A DNA stretch of 31,096 nucleotides from the IMG/VR virus record IMGVR_UViG_2974787870_000001, one strand, 5' to 3'. The position numbers and the translations under genes were made by a program. Below are positions 3,160-21,913 of this stretch, in pieces. A model generated the notes under the pieces. It did no database searches and was not told where the DNA came from. It worked only from the letters and a program-made list of their open reading frames with translations. Every line of letters starts with the position of its first letter. Within the stretch, counting starts at the first letter, position 1. This DNA is from a virus (taxonomy: Duplodnaviria > Heunggongvirae > Uroviricota > Caudoviricetes > Peduoviridae).

Positions 3160-3762
3160 ATGTTATTAATGAATGAGAAAAAAAGACAAAAATATCTAAA
3201 GATAATGTTTGAATGTCAAAAGCGACTTGAAACACTTCATGCTTTATCATCTGGAAGGATTGATGGCATTTATTTTCAAGTGTTAATTGAAATGGAGGCG
3301 TTGCAGCTTAGGAAGCTACTAGAGCTCATTGCATTTTCATCTCTAATTTCACATGAAAAAGCATACGAGAAGGTTACAAAGAAGATTGATGGTGTATGGA
3401 AGGCGAAGAATATATTTAAAGAGTTGGAAAAGATAAACCCTAACTTTTATCCAGTACCAATATCAGGAGTAACCAAAACGGGCTGGACGAAACTAACGGG
3501 AGGTTTTTTGACGAAAAAACAGTTTATCAAGCTATATGATGAATGCTCAAAACATATTCACGTAAGGAACCCATATCGGGTTAGGGAAAACTCGCTGGGG
3601 TTTCATAAAAAAGTTCCAGAGTATTTATCAAGAATTGAAACTCTACTGTTAAAGCACATTGTTTCTCTTGCCGGGAATGAAGAACTTCTTCTTGTAGATG
3701 TGCCTCATTATGAAGACTCTGTAACAGCTATAAAAATGAGCCACCTCGTTAAAATGGGGTGA
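3160..3762 (+). CDS. AT-rich cargo ORF of unknown function (200 aa) in the tin/old slot; candidate defence or exclusion protein
   Basis: Uninterrupted 200-aa ORF; visibly far more AT-rich than the flanking phage genes; sits between A and cos where P2 carries tin and old; followed by its own hairpin. Confidence 0.65.
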   Translation: MLLMNEKKRQKYLKIMFECQKRLETLHALSSGRIDGIYFQVLIEMEALQLRKLLELIAFSSLISHEKAYEKVTKKIDGVWKAKNIFKELEKINPNFYPVPISGVTKTGWTKLTGGFLTKKQFIKLYDECSKHIHVRNPYRVRENSLGFHKKVPEYLSRIETLLLKHIVSLAGNEELLLVDVPHYEDSVTAIKMSHLVKMG

Positions 3763-10697: not shown

Positions 10698-10979
10698 ATG
10701 ACAGCAGAAGAAAAAAGCGTCCTGTCGCTTTTCATGATTGGGGTGCTGATTGTTGTCGGCAAGGTGCTTGCCGGTGGTGAACCCATCACCCCGCGTCTGT
10801 TTATCGGGCGCATGTTGCTCGGTGGTTTTGTCTCGATGGTTGCCGGTGTTGTTCTGGTGCAGTTTCCTGACCTGTCACTGCCTGCGGTGTGCGGCATCGG
10901 TTCCATGCTGGGTATCGCCGGTTATCAGGTGATTGAGATTGCCATTCAGCGCCGCTTTAAGGGCAGGGGGAAACCGTAA
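10698..10979 (+). CDS. Y: Holin GpY
   Basis: 93 aa with hydrophobic helices and a charged C-terminus (RRFKGRGKP); directly precedes the endolysin. Confidence 0.8.
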   Translation: MTAEEKSVLSLFMIGVLIVVGKVLAGGEPITPRLFIGRMLLGGFVSMVAGVVLVQFPDLSLPAVCGIGSMLGIAGYQVIEIAIQRRFKGRGKP

Positions 10980-11476
10980 TGCCGGTAATTAACACGCATC
11001 AGAATATCGCCGCCTTTCTCGACATGCTGGCCGTGTCCGAAGGGACGGCGAACCATCCGCTGACGAAAAACCGGGGCTATGACGTGATAGTCACCGGACT
11101 GGACGGAAAGCCGGAAATTTTCACCGACTACAGTGACCACCCGTTCGCGCATGGCCGACCGGCGAAGGTGTTTAACCGTCGCGGTGAAAAATCCACGGCC
11201 TCCGGTCGCTATCAGCAGCTTTACCTGTTCTGGCCGCATTACCGCAAACAGCTTGCCCTGCCGGATTTCAGTCCGTTGTCACAGGACAGGCTCGCCATTC
11301 AGTTGATCCGCGAACGCGGTGCGCTGGATGACATCCGGGCGGGGCGCATTGAGCGCGCCATTTCACGCTGTCGCAATATCTGGGCGTCCCTGCCGGGTGC
11401 CGGTTACGGTCAGCGTGAGCATTCACTGGAAAAACTGGTCACCGTCTGGCGTACCGCTGGCGGCGTACCGGCTTAA
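10979..11476 (+). CDS. K: Endolysin GpK (lysozyme family)
   Basis: 165-aa ORF with a lambda-R-like N-terminus (AAFLDMLAVSEGT); position in the lysis cassette. Confidence 0.85.
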   Translation: MPVINTHQNIAAFLDMLAVSEGTANHPLTKNRGYDVIVTGLDGKPEIFTDYSDHPFAHGRPAKVFNRRGEKSTASGRYQQLYLFWPHYRKQLALPDFSPLSQDRLAIQLIRERGALDDIRAGRIERAISRCRNIWASLPGAGYGQREHSLEKLVTVWRTAGGVPA

Positions 11477-11490
11477 ACGGAGTAAACACC

Positions 11491-11916
11491 ATGAAGAAAT
11501 TATCCCTTTCACTGATGCTGAACGTGTCGCTGGCGCTGATGCTTGCACTGTCCCTGATTTACCCGCAGAGCGTGACCGTCAGTTTTGTCGCTGCCTGGGC
11601 GATTCTGGCGACGGTTATCTGTGTGGTTGCCGGTGGTGTCGGCGTGTATGCCACTGAGTATGTGCTGGAACGCTACGGGCGGGAGCTGCCGCCGGAATCG
11701 CTGGCCGTGAAGATTGTCACGTCGCTGTTTTTGCAGCCGGTAACGTGGTGCCGACGGGCTGTGGGTCTGGTGGTGATGGTGGCGACGTTTATCTCGCTGG
11801 TCGCTGCCGGGTGGATTTTTACCGCGCTGATTTATCTCGTGGCGTCGCTGTTCTTCCGGCTGATACGTACGGCCTGTCGTCAGCGTCTTGAGGAGCGGGA
11901 ACTATGTCAAAGCTGA
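11491..11916 (+). CDS. lysA: LysA, membrane protein of the lysis cassette
   Basis: 141 aa, multiple hydrophobic segments; synteny. Confidence 0.75.
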   Translation: MKKLSLSLMLNVSLALMLALSLIYPQSVTVSFVAAWAILATVICVVAGGVGVYATEYVLERYGRELPPESLAVKIVTSLFLQPVTWCRRAVGLVVMVATFISLVAAGWIFTALIYLVASLFFRLIRTACRQRLEERELCQS

Positions 11917-12347
11917 TGATTGTGCTGGTCGTGTTGTTATCGCTGGCGGTGGCCGGTCTGTTTCTGGTGAAGCATGAAAACGCCAGCCTGCGCGCCTCGC
12001 TGGACAGGGTGAACAACGTCGCCAGTGAACAGCAGACGACCATCACTATGCTGAAAAATCAGCTTCATGTTGCCCTCACCAGGGCAGACAAAAACGAGCT
12101 GGCGCAGGTGGCACTGCGTCAGGAACTGGAGAACGCCGCGAAGCGTGAAGCACAGCGCGAGAAAACCATCACGAGGTTACTTAATGAAAACGAAGATTTT
12201 CGCCGCTGGTACGGCGCTGACCTGCCTGATACTGTGCGCCGGTTGCACCAGCGCCCCGCCTGCACCGATGCCAGTGATTGTCCACAACGCCTGCCCGAAA
12301 GTGAGTCTTTGCCCGATGCCGGGCAGCGACCCGGAGACGAACGGTGA
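11904..12347 (+). CDS. lysB: LysB, inner-membrane spanin (Rz-like)
   Basis: N-terminal transmembrane segment followed by a coiled-coil-like region; synteny. Confidence 0.8.
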   Translation: MSKLMIVLVVLLSLAVAGLFLVKHENASLRASLDRVNNVASEQQTTITMLKNQLHVALTRADKNELAQVALRQELENAAKREAQREKTITRLLNENEDFRRWYGADLPDTVRRLHQRPACTDASDCPQRLPESESLPDAGQRPGDER

Positions 12348-12474
12348 TTTAAGTGCCGATATCCGGCAGCTTGAGAACGCGCTGGCGCGCTGTGCCAGCC
12401 AGGTAAAAATGATTAAACACTGTCAGGACGAAAACGATGCTCAAACCCGACAGCCTGCGCAGGGCGCTGACTGA
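12184..12474 (+). CDS. lysC: LysC, outer-membrane lipoprotein spanin (Rz1-like), overlapping lysB in another frame
   Basis: Internal start 'MKTKIFAAGTALTCLILCAGC' carries a lipobox (LCAGC) in the alternate frame over the lysB 3' end. Confidence 0.7.
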   Translation: MKTKIFAAGTALTCLILCAGCTSAPPAPMPVIVHNACPKVSLCPMPGSDPETNGDLSADIRQLENALARCASQVKMIKHCQDENDAQTRQPAQGAD

Positions 12475-12904
12475 TGCCGTCACGGTGCTGAAAACCAGTC
12501 CCGAGATGCTGCGGATATTCGTTGATAACGGGAGTATTGCCTCCACGCTGGCGACGTCGTTGTCATTCGAAAAGCGTTACACGCTCAATGTGATTGTGAC
12601 CGACTTTACCGGTGATTTTGATCTGCTCATCGTGCCGGTGCTGGCGTGGCTGCGGGAAAATCAGCCCGACATCATGACCACCGACGCAGGCCAGAAAAAG
12701 GGCTTCACGTTTTATGCAGACATCAACAATGACAGCAGCTTTGATATCAGCATCAGCCTGATGCTGACCGAGCGCACGCTGGTCAGTGAGGTGGACGGCG
12801 CACTGCATGTGAAGAATATCCCGGAACCCACGCCGCCGGAGCCGGTCACCCGCCCGGTGGAGCTTTATATCAATGGCGAACTGGTGAGCATGTGGGATGA
12901 ATGA
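12437..12904 (+). CDS. R: Tail completion protein GpR
   Basis: 155-aa ORF; synteny. Confidence 0.82.
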   Translation: MLKPDSLRRALTDAVTVLKTSPEMLRIFVDNGSIASTLATSLSFEKRYTLNVIVTDFTGDFDLLIVPVLAWLRENQPDIMTTDAGQKKGFTFYADINNDSSFDISISLMLTERTLVSEVDGALHVKNIPEPTPPEPVTRPVELYINGELVSMWDE

Positions 12905-15841: not shown

Positions 15842-18577
15842 ATGAGCACGAAATTTAAAACCGTTATCACTACTGCCGGAGCCGCAAAGCTGGCAGCCGC
15901 CACTGTCCCCGGCGGGAAAAAAGTAACCCTGTCTGCAATGGCCGTGGGTGACGGTAATGGCAAATTGCCGGTGCCGGATGCCGGTCAGACGAAACTGGTG
16001 CATGAGGTCTGGCGTCACGCTCTGAATAAAGTCAGCGTGGATAACAAGAATAAAAACTATATCGTGGCTGAACTGGTTGTACCGCCCGAAGTGGGCGGAT
16101 TCTGGATGCGTGAGCTTGGTCTGTATGACGATGCCGGAACACTGATTGCGGTCGCCAACATGGCAGAAAGCTATAAGCCTGAACTCGCTGAAGGCTCCGG
16201 GCGTGCGCAGACCTGCCGCATGGTTATTATTGTCAGTAACGTGGCGTCCGTTGAGCTGAGTATTGATGCCAGCACAGTGATGGCGACGCAGGATTACGTC
16301 GATGACAAAATCGCAGAACATGAGCAGTCCCGCCGCCATCCTGACGCCACGCTGACAGAAAAAGGTTTTACCCAGTTAAGCAGCGCAACAAACAGCACCA
16401 GTGAAAAACTGGCGGCAACGCCAAAAGCGGTCAAGGCTGCGAATGACAACGCAAATTCACGTCTGGCGAAAAATCAGAACGGTGCAGATATCCAGGATAA
16501 ATCAGCTTTTCTGGACAATGTTGGCGTTACCAGCCTGACGTTTATGAAAAACAACGGCGAAATGCCGGTTGATGCTGATCTGAATACATTTGGTCCAGTT
16601 AAGGCTTATCTGGGGATCTGGTCTAAAGCTACCTCAACTAACGCAACACTGGAGAAAAATTTCCCGGAAGATAATGCTGTCGGTGTGCTTGAGGTTTTTG
16701 CTGCCGGCAATTTTGCAGGCACGCAACGCTTTATCACGAGAGACGGCAATGTATACATGCGTAAACTCGCCAATAAGTGGAATGGTACTGATGGTCCATG
16801 GGGCGTATGGCGTCACACTCAATCAGCTACCCGCCCTTTGAGTACGACTATAGACCTGAATACGCTTGGAGCCGCCGAACATCTTGGTTTATGGCGTAAC
16901 AGTAGCTCGGCTATAGCTTCATATGAACGCAATTATCCAGAGGAAGGCGGCTTTGCTCAAGGGACGCTTGAGATCCTCGAAGGCGGGAATTATGGAAGAA
17001 CGCAACGTTATACCACTCGCCGTGGAAATATGTACGTCCGCTGCCTTGCGGCAAGCTGGGATGCATCAAATCCGCAGTGGGAACCGTGGTTAAGAGTCGG
17101 TCATCAGTCAGAGAGTCGTTATTACGAAGGTGATTTAAATGTTCTAACCGACCCCGGTATTTACAGTGTTACAGGAAAGGCAACAAACGGTCCGATGCTG
17201 GACACCGTTGGCGCGACACTACTTGGGATACTGGAAGTAATCAGACGTTTTGATGGTGTGTCTGTCTGGCAGCGTTACACAACCACAGGGAAATCAGAAA
17301 CCACACAGGGACGCACTTTTGAGCGCGTCTACGCCGGGAGCAAATGGACCGAATGGCGAGAAGTATATAACTCCTTTTCGTTGCCTCTGAATCTGGGCAT
17401 CGGTGGCGCAGTGGCAAAACTATCCATTCTGGACTGGCAGACCTACGATTTTGTGCCGGGCAGTCTGATAACCGTTCGGCTTGATAATATGACCAACATT
17501 CCCGACGGTATGGACTGGGGCGTCATTGATGGCAACCTGATAAACATCGCAGTTGGTCCGAGTGATGATTCCGGTACGGGGCGCTCAATGCATGTATGGC
17601 GCAGCACTGTAAGTAAAGCCAACTACCGCTTTTTTATGGTGCGCATTTCAGGAAATCCGGGAAGCCGCACGATCACAACAAGACGAGTACCAATCATTGA
17701 CGAAGCCCAGACATGGGGCGCGAAACAGACATTCAGTGCTGGCCTTTCTGGTGAACTGTCCGGCAATGCGGCGACAGCAACAAAGCTGAAAACAGCCCGT
17801 AAAATTAATAACGTTTCGTTTGATGGAACATCAGATATTAACCTGACGCCGAAAAATATTGGTGCATTTGCTTCAGGAAAAACAGGAGACACCGTTGCGA
17901 ATGATAAAGCCGTTGGATGGAACTGGAGTAGCGGAGCCTATAACGCAACTATTGGTGGGGCATCAACGTTAATTCTTCATTTTAATATCGGTGAAGGAAG
18001 TTGTCCCGCCGCCCAGTTTCGCGTTAATTATAAGAACGGTGGTATTTTTTATCGTTCTGCTCGTGACGGTTACGGATTCGAGGCTGACTGGTCTGAGTTT
18101 TATACCACAACGCGAAAACCTACAGCGGGAGATGTCGGTGCACTGCCGTTATCTGGTGGTCAATTGAATGGTGCTCTGGGTATAGGAACATCCAGTGCTC
18201 TTGGCGGTAATTCGATTGTTTTGGGTGATAATGACACGGGCTTTAAACAAAATGGTGATGGTAATCTGGATGTTTATGCTAATAGCGTCCATGTTATGCG
18301 CTTTGTCTCCGGAAGCGTTCAAAGTAATAAAACCATAAATATTACGGGGCGTGTTAATCCCTCGGATTACGGTAACTTTGATTCCCGCTATGTGAGAGAT
18401 GTCAGACTTGGCACACGTGTTGTCCAGACCATGCAGAAAGGGGTGATGTATGAGAAAGCAGGGCACGTAATTACCGGGCTTGGTATTGTCGGTGAAGTCG
18501 ATGGTGATGACCCCGCAGTATTCAGACCAATACAAAAATACATCAATGGCACATGGTATAACGTCGCACAGGTGTAA
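15842..18577 (+). CDS. H: Tail fibre protein GpH (conserved N-terminus, mosaic C-terminus with three tandem domain repeats)
   Basis: 911 aa; N-terminus 'MSTKFKTVITTAGAAKLAAA' as I recall for P2 H; GC drops in the distal half. Confidence 0.9.
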   Translation: MSTKFKTVITTAGAAKLAAATVPGGKKVTLSAMAVGDGNGKLPVPDAGQTKLVHEVWRHALNKVSVDNKNKNYIVAELVVPPEVGGFWMRELGLYDDAGTLIAVANMAESYKPELAEGSGRAQTCRMVIIVSNVASVELSIDASTVMATQDYVDDKIAEHEQSRRHPDATLTEKGFTQLSSATNSTSEKLAATPKAVKAANDNANSRLAKNQNGADIQDKSAFLDNVGVTSLTFMKNNGEMPVDADLNTFGPVKAYLGIWSKATSTNATLEKNFPEDNAVGVLEVFAAGNFAGTQRFITRDGNVYMRKLANKWNGTDGPWGVWRHTQSATRPLSTTIDLNTLGAAEHLGLWRNSSSAIASYERNYPEEGGFAQGTLEILEGGNYGRTQRYTTRRGNMYVRCLAASWDASNPQWEPWLRVGHQSESRYYEGDLNVLTDPGIYSVTGKATNGPMLDTVGATLLGILEVIRRFDGVSVWQRYTTTGKSETTQGRTFERVYAGSKWTEWREVYNSFSLPLNLGIGGAVAKLSILDWQTYDFVPGSLITVRLDNMTNIPDGMDWGVIDGNLINIAVGPSDDSGTGRSMHVWRSTVSKANYRFFMVRISGNPGSRTITTRRVPIIDEAQTWGAKQTFSAGLSGELSGNAATATKLKTARKINNVSFDGTSDINLTPKNIGAFASGKTGDTVANDKAVGWNWSSGAYNATIGGASTLILHFNIGEGSCPAAQFRVNYKNGGIFYRSARDGYGFEADWSEFYTTTRKPTAGDVGALPLSGGQLNGALGIGTSSALGGNSIVLGDNDTGFKQNGDGNLDVYANSVHVMRFVSGSVQSNKTINITGRVNPSDYGNFDSRYVRDVRLGTRVVQTMQKGVMYEKAGHVITGLGIVGEVDGDDPAVFRPIQKYINGTWYNVAQV

Positions 18578-18580
18578 TTT

Positions 18581-19108
18581 ATGCAGCATTTAAAAAATAT
18601 TACTGCGGGTAATCCAAAAACTGTTGCCCAATATCAACTGACAAAAAATTTTGATGTTATCTGGTTATGGTCCGAAGAGGGAAAAAACTGGTATGAGGAA
18701 GTAAGTAATTTTCAGGAAGACACGATAAAGATTGTTTACGACGAGAATAATATAATTGTCGGCATCACCAGAGATGCTTCAACGCTCAACCCTGAAGGTT
18801 TTAGCGTTGTCGAGGTTCCTGATATTACCGCCAACCGACGTGCTGATGACTCAGGTAAATGGATGTTTAAGGATGGTGCCGTGATTAAGCGGATTTATAC
18901 GGCAGACGAACAGCAACAACAGGCAGAATCACAAAAGGCCGCGTTACTTTCCGAAACCGAATCCGTGATTTTGCCGCTGGAGCGCGCTGTCAGGCTGAAT
19001 ATGGCAACAGATGAGGAGCGCAGTCGACTGGAAGCATGGGAACGCTACAGCGTTCTGGTCAGTCGTGTGGATCCTGCAAATCCTGAATGGCCGGAAATGC
19101 CGCAATAA
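18581..19108 (+). CDS. G: Tail fibre assembly chaperone GpG
   Basis: 175-aa ORF immediately after H; synteny. Confidence 0.82.
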
Positions 19109-20722: not shown

Positions 20723-21913
20723 ATGAGTGACTATCATCACGGCGTGCAGGTGCTGGAGATTAACGACGGCACCCGCGTCATTTCCACCGTATCCACCGCC
20801 ATTGTTGGCATGGTCTGCACGGCCAGCGATGCGGATGCGGAAACCTTCCCCGTCAATAAACCGGTGCTGATCACCAATGTGCAGAGCGCGATTGCAAAGG
20901 CCGGTAAAAAAGGCACGCTGGCGGCATCGTTGCAGGCCATCGCTGACCAGTCAAAACCGGTCACCGTTGTCGTGCGCGTGGAAGACGGCACCGGCGACGA
21001 CGAAGAAACGAAACTCGCGCAGACCGTTTCCAATATCATCGGCACCACTGACGAAAACGGTCAGTACACCGGACTGAAAGCCCTGATGGGCGCAGAGTCG
21101 GTTACCGGCGTTAAACCGCGCATTCTCGGCGTACCGGGACTGGACACCAAAGAGGTGGCGGTTGCACTGGCATCGGTATGCCAGGAACTGAATGCCTTCG
21201 GGTATATCAGCGCATGGGGCTGTAAAACCATTTCCGAGGCAAAAGCCTACCGTCAGAATTTCAGTCAGCGTGAGCTGATGGTCATCTGGCCGGATTTCCT
21301 TGCATGGGATACGGTCACCAGTACCACCGCCACCGCGTATGCCACCGCCCGTGCGCTGGGGCTGCGTGCCAAAATCGACCAGGAGCAGGGCTGGCATAAA
21401 ACGCTGTCCAACGTCGGGGTAAACGGTGTTACCGGCATCAGCGCATCTGTATTCTGGGATTTGCAGAAGTCTGGCACTGATGCTGACCTGCTGAACGAGG
21501 CAGGCGTCACAACGCTGGTTCGCCGCGACGGTTTCCGTTTCTGGGGTAACCGTACCTGCTCCGATGACCCACTTTTCCTCTTTGAAAGCTACACACGTAC
21601 CGCGCAGGTACTGGCCGACACGATGGCTGAGGCGCACATGTGGGCTATTGATAAGCCCATCACCGCAACGCTGATTCGCGACATCATTGATGGCATCAAT
21701 GCCAAATTCCGCGAACTGAAAAACAACGGTTATATCGTGGATGGCACATGCTGGTTCAGTGAAGAAGCCAACGATGCGGAAACCCTCAAGGCCGGAAAAC
21801 TGTATATCGACTACGACTATACACCGGTGCCTCCTCTCGAAAACCTGACCCTGCGCCAGCGTATTACTTCAAGATACCTGGCAAGTCTGGTCACCTCGGT
21901 TAACAGCAATTAA
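20723..21913 (+). CDS. FI: Tail sheath protein FI
   Basis: 396-aa ORF; synteny. Confidence 0.92.
   Translation: MSDYHHGVQVLEINDGTRVISTVSTAIVGMVCTASDADAETFPVNKPVLITNVQSAIAKAGKKGTLAASLQAIADQSKPVTVVVRVEDGTGDDEETKLAQTVSNIIGTTDENGQYTGLKALMGAESVTGVKPRILGVPGLDTKEVAVALASVCQELNAFGYISAWGCKTISEAKAYRQNFSQRELMVIWPDFLAWDTVTSTTATAYATARALGLRAKIDQEQGWHKTLSNVGVNGVTGISASVFWDLQKSGTDADLLNEAGVTTLVRRDGFRFWGNRTCSDDPLFLFESYTRTAQVLADTMAEAHMWAIDKPITATLIRDIIDGINAKFRELKNNGYIVDGTCWFSEEANDAETLKAGKLYIDYDYTPVPPLENLTLRQRITSRYLASLVTSVNSN

Follow-up and report, generated by a model that had tools for sequence, protein, structure and literature searches.

An overlapped lysB/lysC gene pair predicted to encode the two-component spanin of a P2-like phage

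The segment between positions 11904 and 12474 is very probably the spanin locus of a P2-like (Peduovirus) phage, with the two components encoded by genes of the "overlapped" architecture, a reading to which we give a probability of about 0.93. In this layout, one of the classes of Summer 2007 and Kongari 2018, for which P2 lysB/lysC is the paradigm, the gene of the outer-membrane subunit starts inside lysB in the +1 frame and stops inside gene R (PMC3091744, PMC3556154, PMC6139136). The window, that is, the whole stretch of 31,096 nucleotides that was analysed, is a P2-like genome, circularly permuted, with its first letters in the replication gene A. Here lysB/lysC is a known P2-type gene pair in its known arrangement, already described, and as a discovery it carries little weight, this being the textbook example of an overlapped spanin, found in P2 itself. 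The practical value is in annotation, the lysC start at 12184 being better supported than the starts given in several phage records and in RefSeq for identical DNA, and the locus also makes a clean worked example of dual coding. The features discussed below are the following.

10698-10979, plus strand: holin Y (PF04550, E=2.6e-42)
10979-11476, plus strand: endolysin K (PHROG 90 endolysin)
11491-11916, plus strand: lysA (NF038378, E=1.6e-35)
11904-12347, plus strand: lysB, i-spanin (inner-membrane subunit), 147 aa (TIGR03495, PHROG 89, identity to P2 and Wphi)
11913-11969, plus strand: N-terminal transmembrane segment of LysB, residues 4-22, LMIVLVVLLSLAVAGLFLV (Kyte-Doolittle)
12173-12177, plus strand: Shine-Dalgarno sequence GAGGT of lysC (read from the sequence)
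12184-12474, plus strand: lysC, o-spanin (outer-membrane lipoprotein subunit), 96-aa precursor (NF038368, PF23793, identity to P2)
12184-12243, plus strand: predicted signal peptide of LysC, residues 1-20 (n-region MKTK, h-region IFAAGTALTCLIL, lipobox L-C-A-G)
12244-12246, plus strand: codon of Cys21, the predicted lipid-modified first residue of mature LysC (invariance in homologues)
12184-12347, plus strand: dual-coding segment of 164 nt, LysB residues 94-147 and LysC residues 1-54
12327-12347, plus strand: six-residue LysB extension RPGDER and new stop (comparison with P2)
12437-12904, plus strand: tail completion gene R, its first 38 nt overlapping the end of lysC (Pfam PF06891 P2_Phage_GpR, E=1.4e-44)

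The original prediction had described a lysB gene in this region, with a lipobox-containing ORF that begins inside it in another frame, runs past its stop and overlaps the start of R. The lysB ORF has exactly the expected coordinates in both the ORF list and the raw sequence. The internal ORF begins where it had been placed, at ATG 12184 in the +1 frame, and its 96-aa product (MKTKIFAAGTALTCLILCAGCTS... / MKTKIFAAGTALTCLILCAGCTSAPP...) contains the LILCAGC motif at residues 15-21 (12226-12246). The ORF indeed passes the lysB stop, ending 127 nt beyond it with TGA at 12472-12474, and shares its last 38 nt with R (ATG 12437), while its overlap with lysB amounts to 164 nt. The spacer between the GAGG of the Shine-Dalgarno sequence and the ATG is 7 nt. 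The +1 phase is open from stop to stop over 12055-12474; chance alternative-frame ORFs of more than 100 aa are, however, numerous in this GC-rich window, and so an alternative-frame ORF of the size of lysC is not significant alone. The neighbouring genes are, in order, gpX, holin Y, endolysin K and LysA on one side and R (PF06891) and S (PF05069) on the other. The holin and endolysin genes lie directly upstream, as expected for the lysis-cassette location of overlapped spanins, and the cassette order Y-K-lysA-lysB-lysC-R-S is that of P2 and Wphi. A Pfam, NCBIfam and PADLOC scan of the cargo ORFs found no match for two ORFs of interest.

Both products belong to curated spanin families. LysB scored 168 bits (E=1.3e-49) against NCBIfam TIGR03495, phage_LysB "Rz-like lysis system protein LysB", over positions 2-135 of the 135 in the model and well above its curated cut-off of 92.75 bits, and it falls in PHROG 89, "Rz-like spanin"; the PHROG spanin families are matched by LysC as well. 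LysC scored 126.7 bits (E=2.9e-37; curated cut-off, 27 bits) against NCBIfam NF038368, P2_Rz1 "Rz1-like lysis system protein LysC", the whole model (1-85 of 85) aligning to LysC residues 4-88, and 60.4 bits (E=1.6e-16; cut-off, 27) against Pfam PF23793 LysC. The proteins are 95-96% (LysB) and 91-94% (LysC) identical to their counterparts in P2 and Wphi. The likeness to P2 lysC that had been proposed was borne out, with 94% protein identity and the same 96-aa form. The P2 proteins (NP_046767 for LysB, NP_757382 for LysC; 94-95% identity) are members of the same families, and their genes have the same cassette order, the same +1 start inside lysB behind the same Shine-Dalgarno sequence GAGGT, and the same stop inside R. 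The LCAG|C lipobox is also shared, and SpaninDB lists P2 as an overlapped pair with two periplasmic cysteines in LysB and four in LysC, as here.

The pair is widespread. By tblastn lysC matched 274 phage records, with identities down to 35%. Three E. coli chromosomes carry the 571 bp from 11904 to 12474 at 100% identity, in P2-like prophages (e.g. ETEC1701 and JNE25-003), and DNA at least 90% identical occurs in 1561 of 5426 complete E. coli genomes (about 29%), where it is annotated as lysB/lysC. In the protein collection, 631 contigs carry exactly this LysB, under the name "Rz-like lysis system protein LysB", and 13 carry exactly this LysC. Among the Yersinia phages VB-YPM-4 and vB_YpM_46, VB-YPM-4 carries a LysB (147 aa) and a LysC that are 100% identical to those of the window. 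VB-YPM-4 and the E. coli prophages differ from our reading in annotation only, with a 52-aa CDS in the former and an 80-aa, CTG-start lysC in RefSeq for the latter. Conservation was followed in two sets: 83 close relatives that align without gaps, taken from IMG/VR and GenBank and comprising 67 distinct sequences, and 17 diverse Peduoviridae loci, with LysC identity down to about 35%, from the hosts Escherichia, Salmonella, Klebsiella, Erwinia, Yersinia, Burkholderia, Pseudomonas, Halomonas, Shewanella and Aeromonas.

LysB has the anatomy of an i-spanin, with one transmembrane domain at the N-terminus and then a helical domain in the periplasm, as judged by Kyte-Doolittle hydropathy and an AlphaFold2 (AF2) model. 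Averaged over 19 residues, Kyte-Doolittle hydropathy peaks at 3.1 for the span that begins at residue 4, and the single-sequence AF2 model predicts one helix over residues 2-104 (pLDDT 83-95) that encloses the transmembrane segment. The tail, from about residue 105 to 147, is non-helical and of low confidence in the model, and lies within the residues encoded by the overlap (94-147). The periplasmic part contains two cysteines. LysB is 147 aa long here and 141 aa in P2: the P2 stop TGA reads CGA in the window (12327-12329), and a CGA of P2 has become the new TGA (12345-12347). Neither substitution alters LysC, where AGT becomes AGC (Ser) and GGC becomes GGT (Gly). Of the 83 close relatives, 21 have the 147-aa form, and single sequences encode 156 or 127 aa. 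This variation in tail length fits the published observation that the C-termini of i-spanins encoded by such overlaps diverge freely while the o-spanins stay conserved (PMC6139136).

The N-terminus of LysC consists of the n-region MKTK, a 13-residue h-region and the lipobox, which leads to Cys21. This cysteine is invariant in all 100 homologues (83/83 close relatives and 17/17 diverse loci), and in the diverse loci it is preceded by the motif L/C/F-x-[GA]. The lipobox matched neither the PROSITE-like PS51257 pattern nor the DOLOP pattern [LVI][ASTVI][GAS]C; the strict expressions miss LysC because its residue -3 is a cysteine. For the identical LCAG|C of P2, SpaninDB gives a 20-aa signal, LipoP cleavage at 20 and 17 and "No hit by Prosite". 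The missed patterns weigh against a lipoprotein, but since a PROSITE miss goes together there with a positive LipoP call, and since Cys21 is invariant, we did not take them to refute it. Residues +2 and +3 are Thr-Ser, without the Asp at +2 that bears on outer-membrane sorting, and none of the 17 diverse loci has Asp at +2. By analogy with studied spanins, LysC would be lipidated at Cys21 and located in the outer membrane. The predicted mature protein has 76 aa, with nine prolines, of which P25 and P26 are both intact, and four periplasmic cysteines. A single-sequence AF2 model of low confidence (mean pLDDT 51.5) places a helix in the signal peptide, a proline-rich unstructured stretch at 22-55 and a second helix at 56-88, and this predicted fold matches the description of P2 LysC as N-terminally proline-rich and C-terminally helical (PMC3556154). 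It is conceivable, though unlikely, that the recurrent 141-aa and 147-aa LysB tails, and the cysteine at lipobox position -3 with its second LipoP site (17|18), give rise to functionally distinct spanin isoforms.

The pair had also been called a P2-type Rz/Rz1 arrangement, and this held for presumed function and layout but not for sequence, LysB being without detectable similarity to a lambdoid Rz. As in Rz/Rz1 of lambda and phage 21, a helical inner-membrane subunit is paired with a small proline-containing outer-membrane lipoprotein whose gene uses the +1 frame of the same DNA; the pair provides the final function of the lysis cassette, and the mechanism is presumed to be the same (PMC6139136, PMC3556154). 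A BLASTP comparison of LysB with phage 21 Rz gave E=0.33, with no detectable homology, and no Pfam Rz family matched LysB at E<=0.01. Moreover, Rz1 lies wholly inside Rz ("embedded"), whereas lysC extends 127 nt beyond lysB and into R. Lambda Rz1 is shorter and more proline-rich than mature LysC and is not known to have a C-terminal helix. For the 76-aa mature LysC, a C-terminal helix is predicted (low-confidence model; PMC3556154). The Burkholderia P2-like phages KS14, KL3, phiE202 and Milagro have the same overlapped layout, in which lysC begins some 155-164 nt ahead of the lysB stop (164 nt in phiE202 and Milagro, 155 nt in FLC5, which is related to KS14) and ends a few nucleotides into R, and their LysC has a signal peptidase II site between residues 20 and 21 (PMC3091744). 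They differ in that LysC is only 35-46% identical to that of the window, the lipobox reads L-C-A-C and lysC shares 8 nt with R, not 38.

The internal start of lysC, which the original prediction expected to be conserved, is ATG in all 83 close relatives and ATG or GTG in all 17 diverse loci. In the close relatives LysC is always 96 aa long and always keeps LCAGC, and the Shine-Dalgarno GAGG is kept in 79. In 25 of them a stop codon in the lysC frame stands directly before the ATG and therefore excludes any upstream start. Across the diverse loci lysC is invariably in the +1 frame relative to lysB, overlaps it by 146-176 nt and ends at or inside R; GAGG- or GGAG-type motifs precede the start in most of them, and in 10 of the 17 the frame opens only 0-1 codon before it. 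With automatic start choice, 20 residues precede the lipobox cysteine in 15 of the 17 loci; the other two have 21 and 25, where the script took an earlier TTG.

It is very unlikely that lysC, as a real gene, initiates elsewhere, at ATG 12067 (135 aa), CTG 12232 (80 aa) or ATG 12316 (52 aa). An open frame from 12055 with an ATG at 12067 would allow an earlier start, but the stop codons just mentioned (25/83 and 10/17 loci) show that an upstream extension cannot be general, and the 12067 start has no Shine-Dalgarno-like motif upstream and would leave the signal peptide preceded by 39 charged residues. The downstream starts have public annotation in their favour: on 100%-identical E. coli DNA, PGAP/RefSeq places the lysC start at the CTG equivalent to 12232 (80 aa), 159-nt (52-aa) o-spanin CDSs from the equivalent of 12316 are annotated in VB-YPM-4, SEN1, EtG and ST147-VIM1phi7.1, and LysC forms of 81 and 87 aa are common in the protein collection. 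These starts, however, would delete the n- and h-regions or the entire lipobox, and the NF038368 alignment begins at residue 4 of the 96-aa LysC, the form that is also used by SpaninDB and the P2 RefSeq record. Nor does the window have an ATG, GTG or TTG between 12184 and Cys21: LysC has Ile16 here, where P2 has Met16, and Thr10, so that the alternative downstream ATGs of its relatives are absent. Gene callers are, moreover, documented to be biased against overlapped o-spanin genes (PMC6139136).

Among the individual start codons considered, the upstream ones at 12067, 12070 and 12145 (GTG) were rejected for having no Shine-Dalgarno-like motif and for placing charged residues ahead of the signal peptide, and those downstream at 12232 (CTG) and 12316 for losing part or all of it. 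With 12184 as the start of lysC, the public mis-starts strip LysC of part or all of its signal peptide, and in Cartapus, YenM_06.16-2, Aeromonas LPM4 and fiAA91-ss no lysC CDS is annotated.

The mechanism of spanins has been summarised for lambda Rz/Rz1 (PMC6139136, PMC3091744), and their biochemistry has been done almost entirely on that pair (PMC6139136). Because of this, and because LysB has no sequence similarity to a lambdoid Rz, we hold the mechanism for LysB/LysC by analogy. LysB would be a type II inner-membrane protein, anchored by a transmembrane helix at its N-terminus and continuing as a long helical stalk in the periplasm, with a C-terminal tail that has no fixed structure. LysC, translated within lysB from its own Shine-Dalgarno sequence and the +1-frame ATG at 12184, would lose its 20-residue signal to signal peptidase II, which would cut before Cys21, and the cysteine would be lipid-modified. 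The Lol pathway would then carry the 76-aa mature protein to the inner leaflet of the outer membrane, a destination expected because residue +2 is Thr, not Asp. The two subunits would associate by their periplasmic parts, spanning the envelope across the peptidoglycan mesh. After holin Y had released endolysin K and the wall had been degraded, the spanin complexes would be free to rearrange, and would fuse or disrupt both membranes, inner and outer, and let the progeny out. Lipidation, sorting, complex formation and membrane fusion are carried over here from lambda Rz/Rz1 work and P2 genetics. The lysB and lysC genes reportedly complement lambda Rz/Rz1 null mutants, in work on the genetics of P2 lysC.

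The original P2 annotation ("lysis control / regulation of lysis") suggests another role, in which LysB and LysC would regulate when lysis occurs and would not form a spanin complex that disrupts the outer membrane; the P2 and Wphi records read "nonessential; affects timing of lysis" and "regulation of lysis", and "lysis regulatory protein" is still found in many records. We consider this highly improbable. In anatomy the two proteins fit a two-component spanin exactly, with a transmembrane-anchored helical protein and a lipoprotein with a non-Asp +2 residue, last in the cassette, and the curated families and SpaninDB class LysB/LysC as spanins. A nonessential timing phenotype is, in addition, what spanin mutants display in standard medium to which no divalent cations are added, as is established for lambda Rz/Rz1. 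Regulator and spanin roles are also not mutually exclusive.

Both reading frames of the predicted spanin genes are under purifying selection. In the part that is lysB only, third codon positions are polymorphic at 45 of 93 sites vs 36 of 187 for the other positions (P=8e-7; 67 distinct sequences), and in the 89 nt that are lysC only, the lysC third positions are polymorphic at 8 of 30 sites vs 4 of 59 (P=0.018; 67 distinct sequences), the codon-position pattern of diversity passing from the lysB phase upstream to the lysC phase after the lysB stop. Within the overlap (143-nt core), nucleotide diversity is half that of the lysB-only part, and variants that alter both proteins are depleted, with 7 of 29 observed vs 229 of 429 possible (53%; P=0.0013). 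That the +1-frame ORF is merely a chance open frame in GC-rich coding DNA, with lysB and R the only genes, can be regarded on these comparisons as effectively refuted, for although the window has many chance ORFs of more than 100 aa in alternative frames, LysC has HMM E-values of 1e-16 to 1e-37, protein-level matches in 274 phage records at identities reaching down to 35%, third-position diversity that tracks its own phase in 89 nt free of other genes, and an invariant length in the 83 relatives.

The real gene lysC has its signal peptide overprinted on the most conserved C-terminal motif of LysB, EN-x3-R-x-W-x4-LPD-x-V-x-RL-x2-RP. The hexamer TGCCTG, read as Leu-Pro in the lysB frame and as Cys-Leu in the lysC frame, is conserved in 16 of the 17 diverse loci, and this dual coding probably explains the odd conserved Cys14 of the LysC signal peptide. 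Diversity is lower still downstream, with pi of 0.013 in the lysC-only part vs 0.051 in the lysB-only part, and only 1 of the 38 sites in the lysC/R overlap is polymorphic (67 distinct sequences).

The 3' half of lysC might hold a third layer of information, in which a hairpin and the ribosome-binding region of R would tune R/S read-through or translation; we regard this as unlikely, but if true it would help to explain the least variable stretch of the locus. The hairpin has a stem of 8 bp (12381-12399) and is annotated in P2 as a "putative transcription attenuator" of the O operon. Folded in its 61-nt context it was not more stable than shuffled sequences (z=-0.28), it was not reported by a consensus terminator scan, and the 83 relatives contain no compensatory changes in it. 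One stem pair is G-U here and A-U in P2, and the variation seen among the same relatives consists of A-U to G-U changes and changes in the loop, with two sequences that break a pair.

The stretch at 12183-12260 is read in two frames, so that one DNA sequence encodes both the signal peptide of the o-spanin LysC and the most conserved motif of the i-spanin LysB (EN...R.W....LPD.V.RL..RP). Two elements lie within lysC:

12223-12228, TGCCTG, encoding Leu-Pro of LysB and Cys14-Leu15 of LysC
12381-12399, an 8-bp hairpin, GCTGGCGC-GCT-GTGCCAGC

The hexamer TGCCTG was retained in 16 of the 17 diverse Peduoviridae loci, and the presence of a conserved Cys inside the LysC signal peptide is probably explained by this overlap, since the same DNA encodes the conserved LysB motif. 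As for the hairpin, its equivalent is labelled 'putative transcription attenuator; O operon' in the P2 RefSeq record, and the two differ in one pair, A-U in P2 and G-U in the window. The window hairpin has no T-run, its stability in context did not exceed that of shuffled sequences, and no compensatory changes were found in it among the relatives.

The stop codon of lysB has moved (12327-12347). Where P2 has TGA, the window has CGA, and the next stop, a new TGA, comes 18 nt further on; LysB thereby gains RPGDER and reaches 147 aa, compared to 141 in P2. Neither substitution alters the LysC protein. The 147-aa variant was present in 21 of the 83 gapless close relatives, and the exact LysB protein of the window in 631 contigs.

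Analysis of the public annotations revealed that the start of lysC is often placed too far downstream. On DNA identical to the window, RefSeq/PGAP gives lysC a CTG start and 80 aa (L097, the E. coli ETEC1701 locus, 929-1171, corresponding to 12232-12474 of the window). Several phage records (loci L003-L006, 1633/1639-1791/1797) carry a 52-aa 'o-spanin' without a lipobox, and in others lysC is missing from the annotation entirely. A P2-type LysC o-spanin with 42% identity, adjoining an R-family tail gene, is also present in OR820920.1, a record named 'Bacillus phage vB_BpuM-ZY1'. This host assignment looks doubtful, because a spanin that is an outer-membrane lipoprotein would be of no use to a phage of Gram-positive bacteria.

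Two further ORFs and one further gene lie elsewhere in the window:

3160-3762, + strand, 200-aa ORF in the P2 tin/old variable locus, with an ASCH/DUF3850 ORF (2250-2738) before it and portal gene Q after it
15842-18577, + strand, tail-fibre gene H, 911 aa
19321-20448, + strand, 375-aa ORF in the P2 Z/fun variable locus, with tail-fibre assembly gene G (18581-19108) on one side and sheath gene FI (20723-21913) on the other

Neither ORF had a match in Pfam, NCBIfam or PADLOC. For the 200-aa ORF, tblastn of 50,697 phage records also returned no match; since P2 variable loci are hotspots for anti-phage defence cargo, it may merit separate study. Matches to the 375-aa ORF, 99.7% identical, were confined to 6 phage records, each of which labels the product 'hypothetical protein'. 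The H product has a weak match to PF12604, the C-terminal domain of T4 gp37 (E=7.6e-5), and P2 H is considerably shorter, suggesting a mosaic receptor-binding tip.
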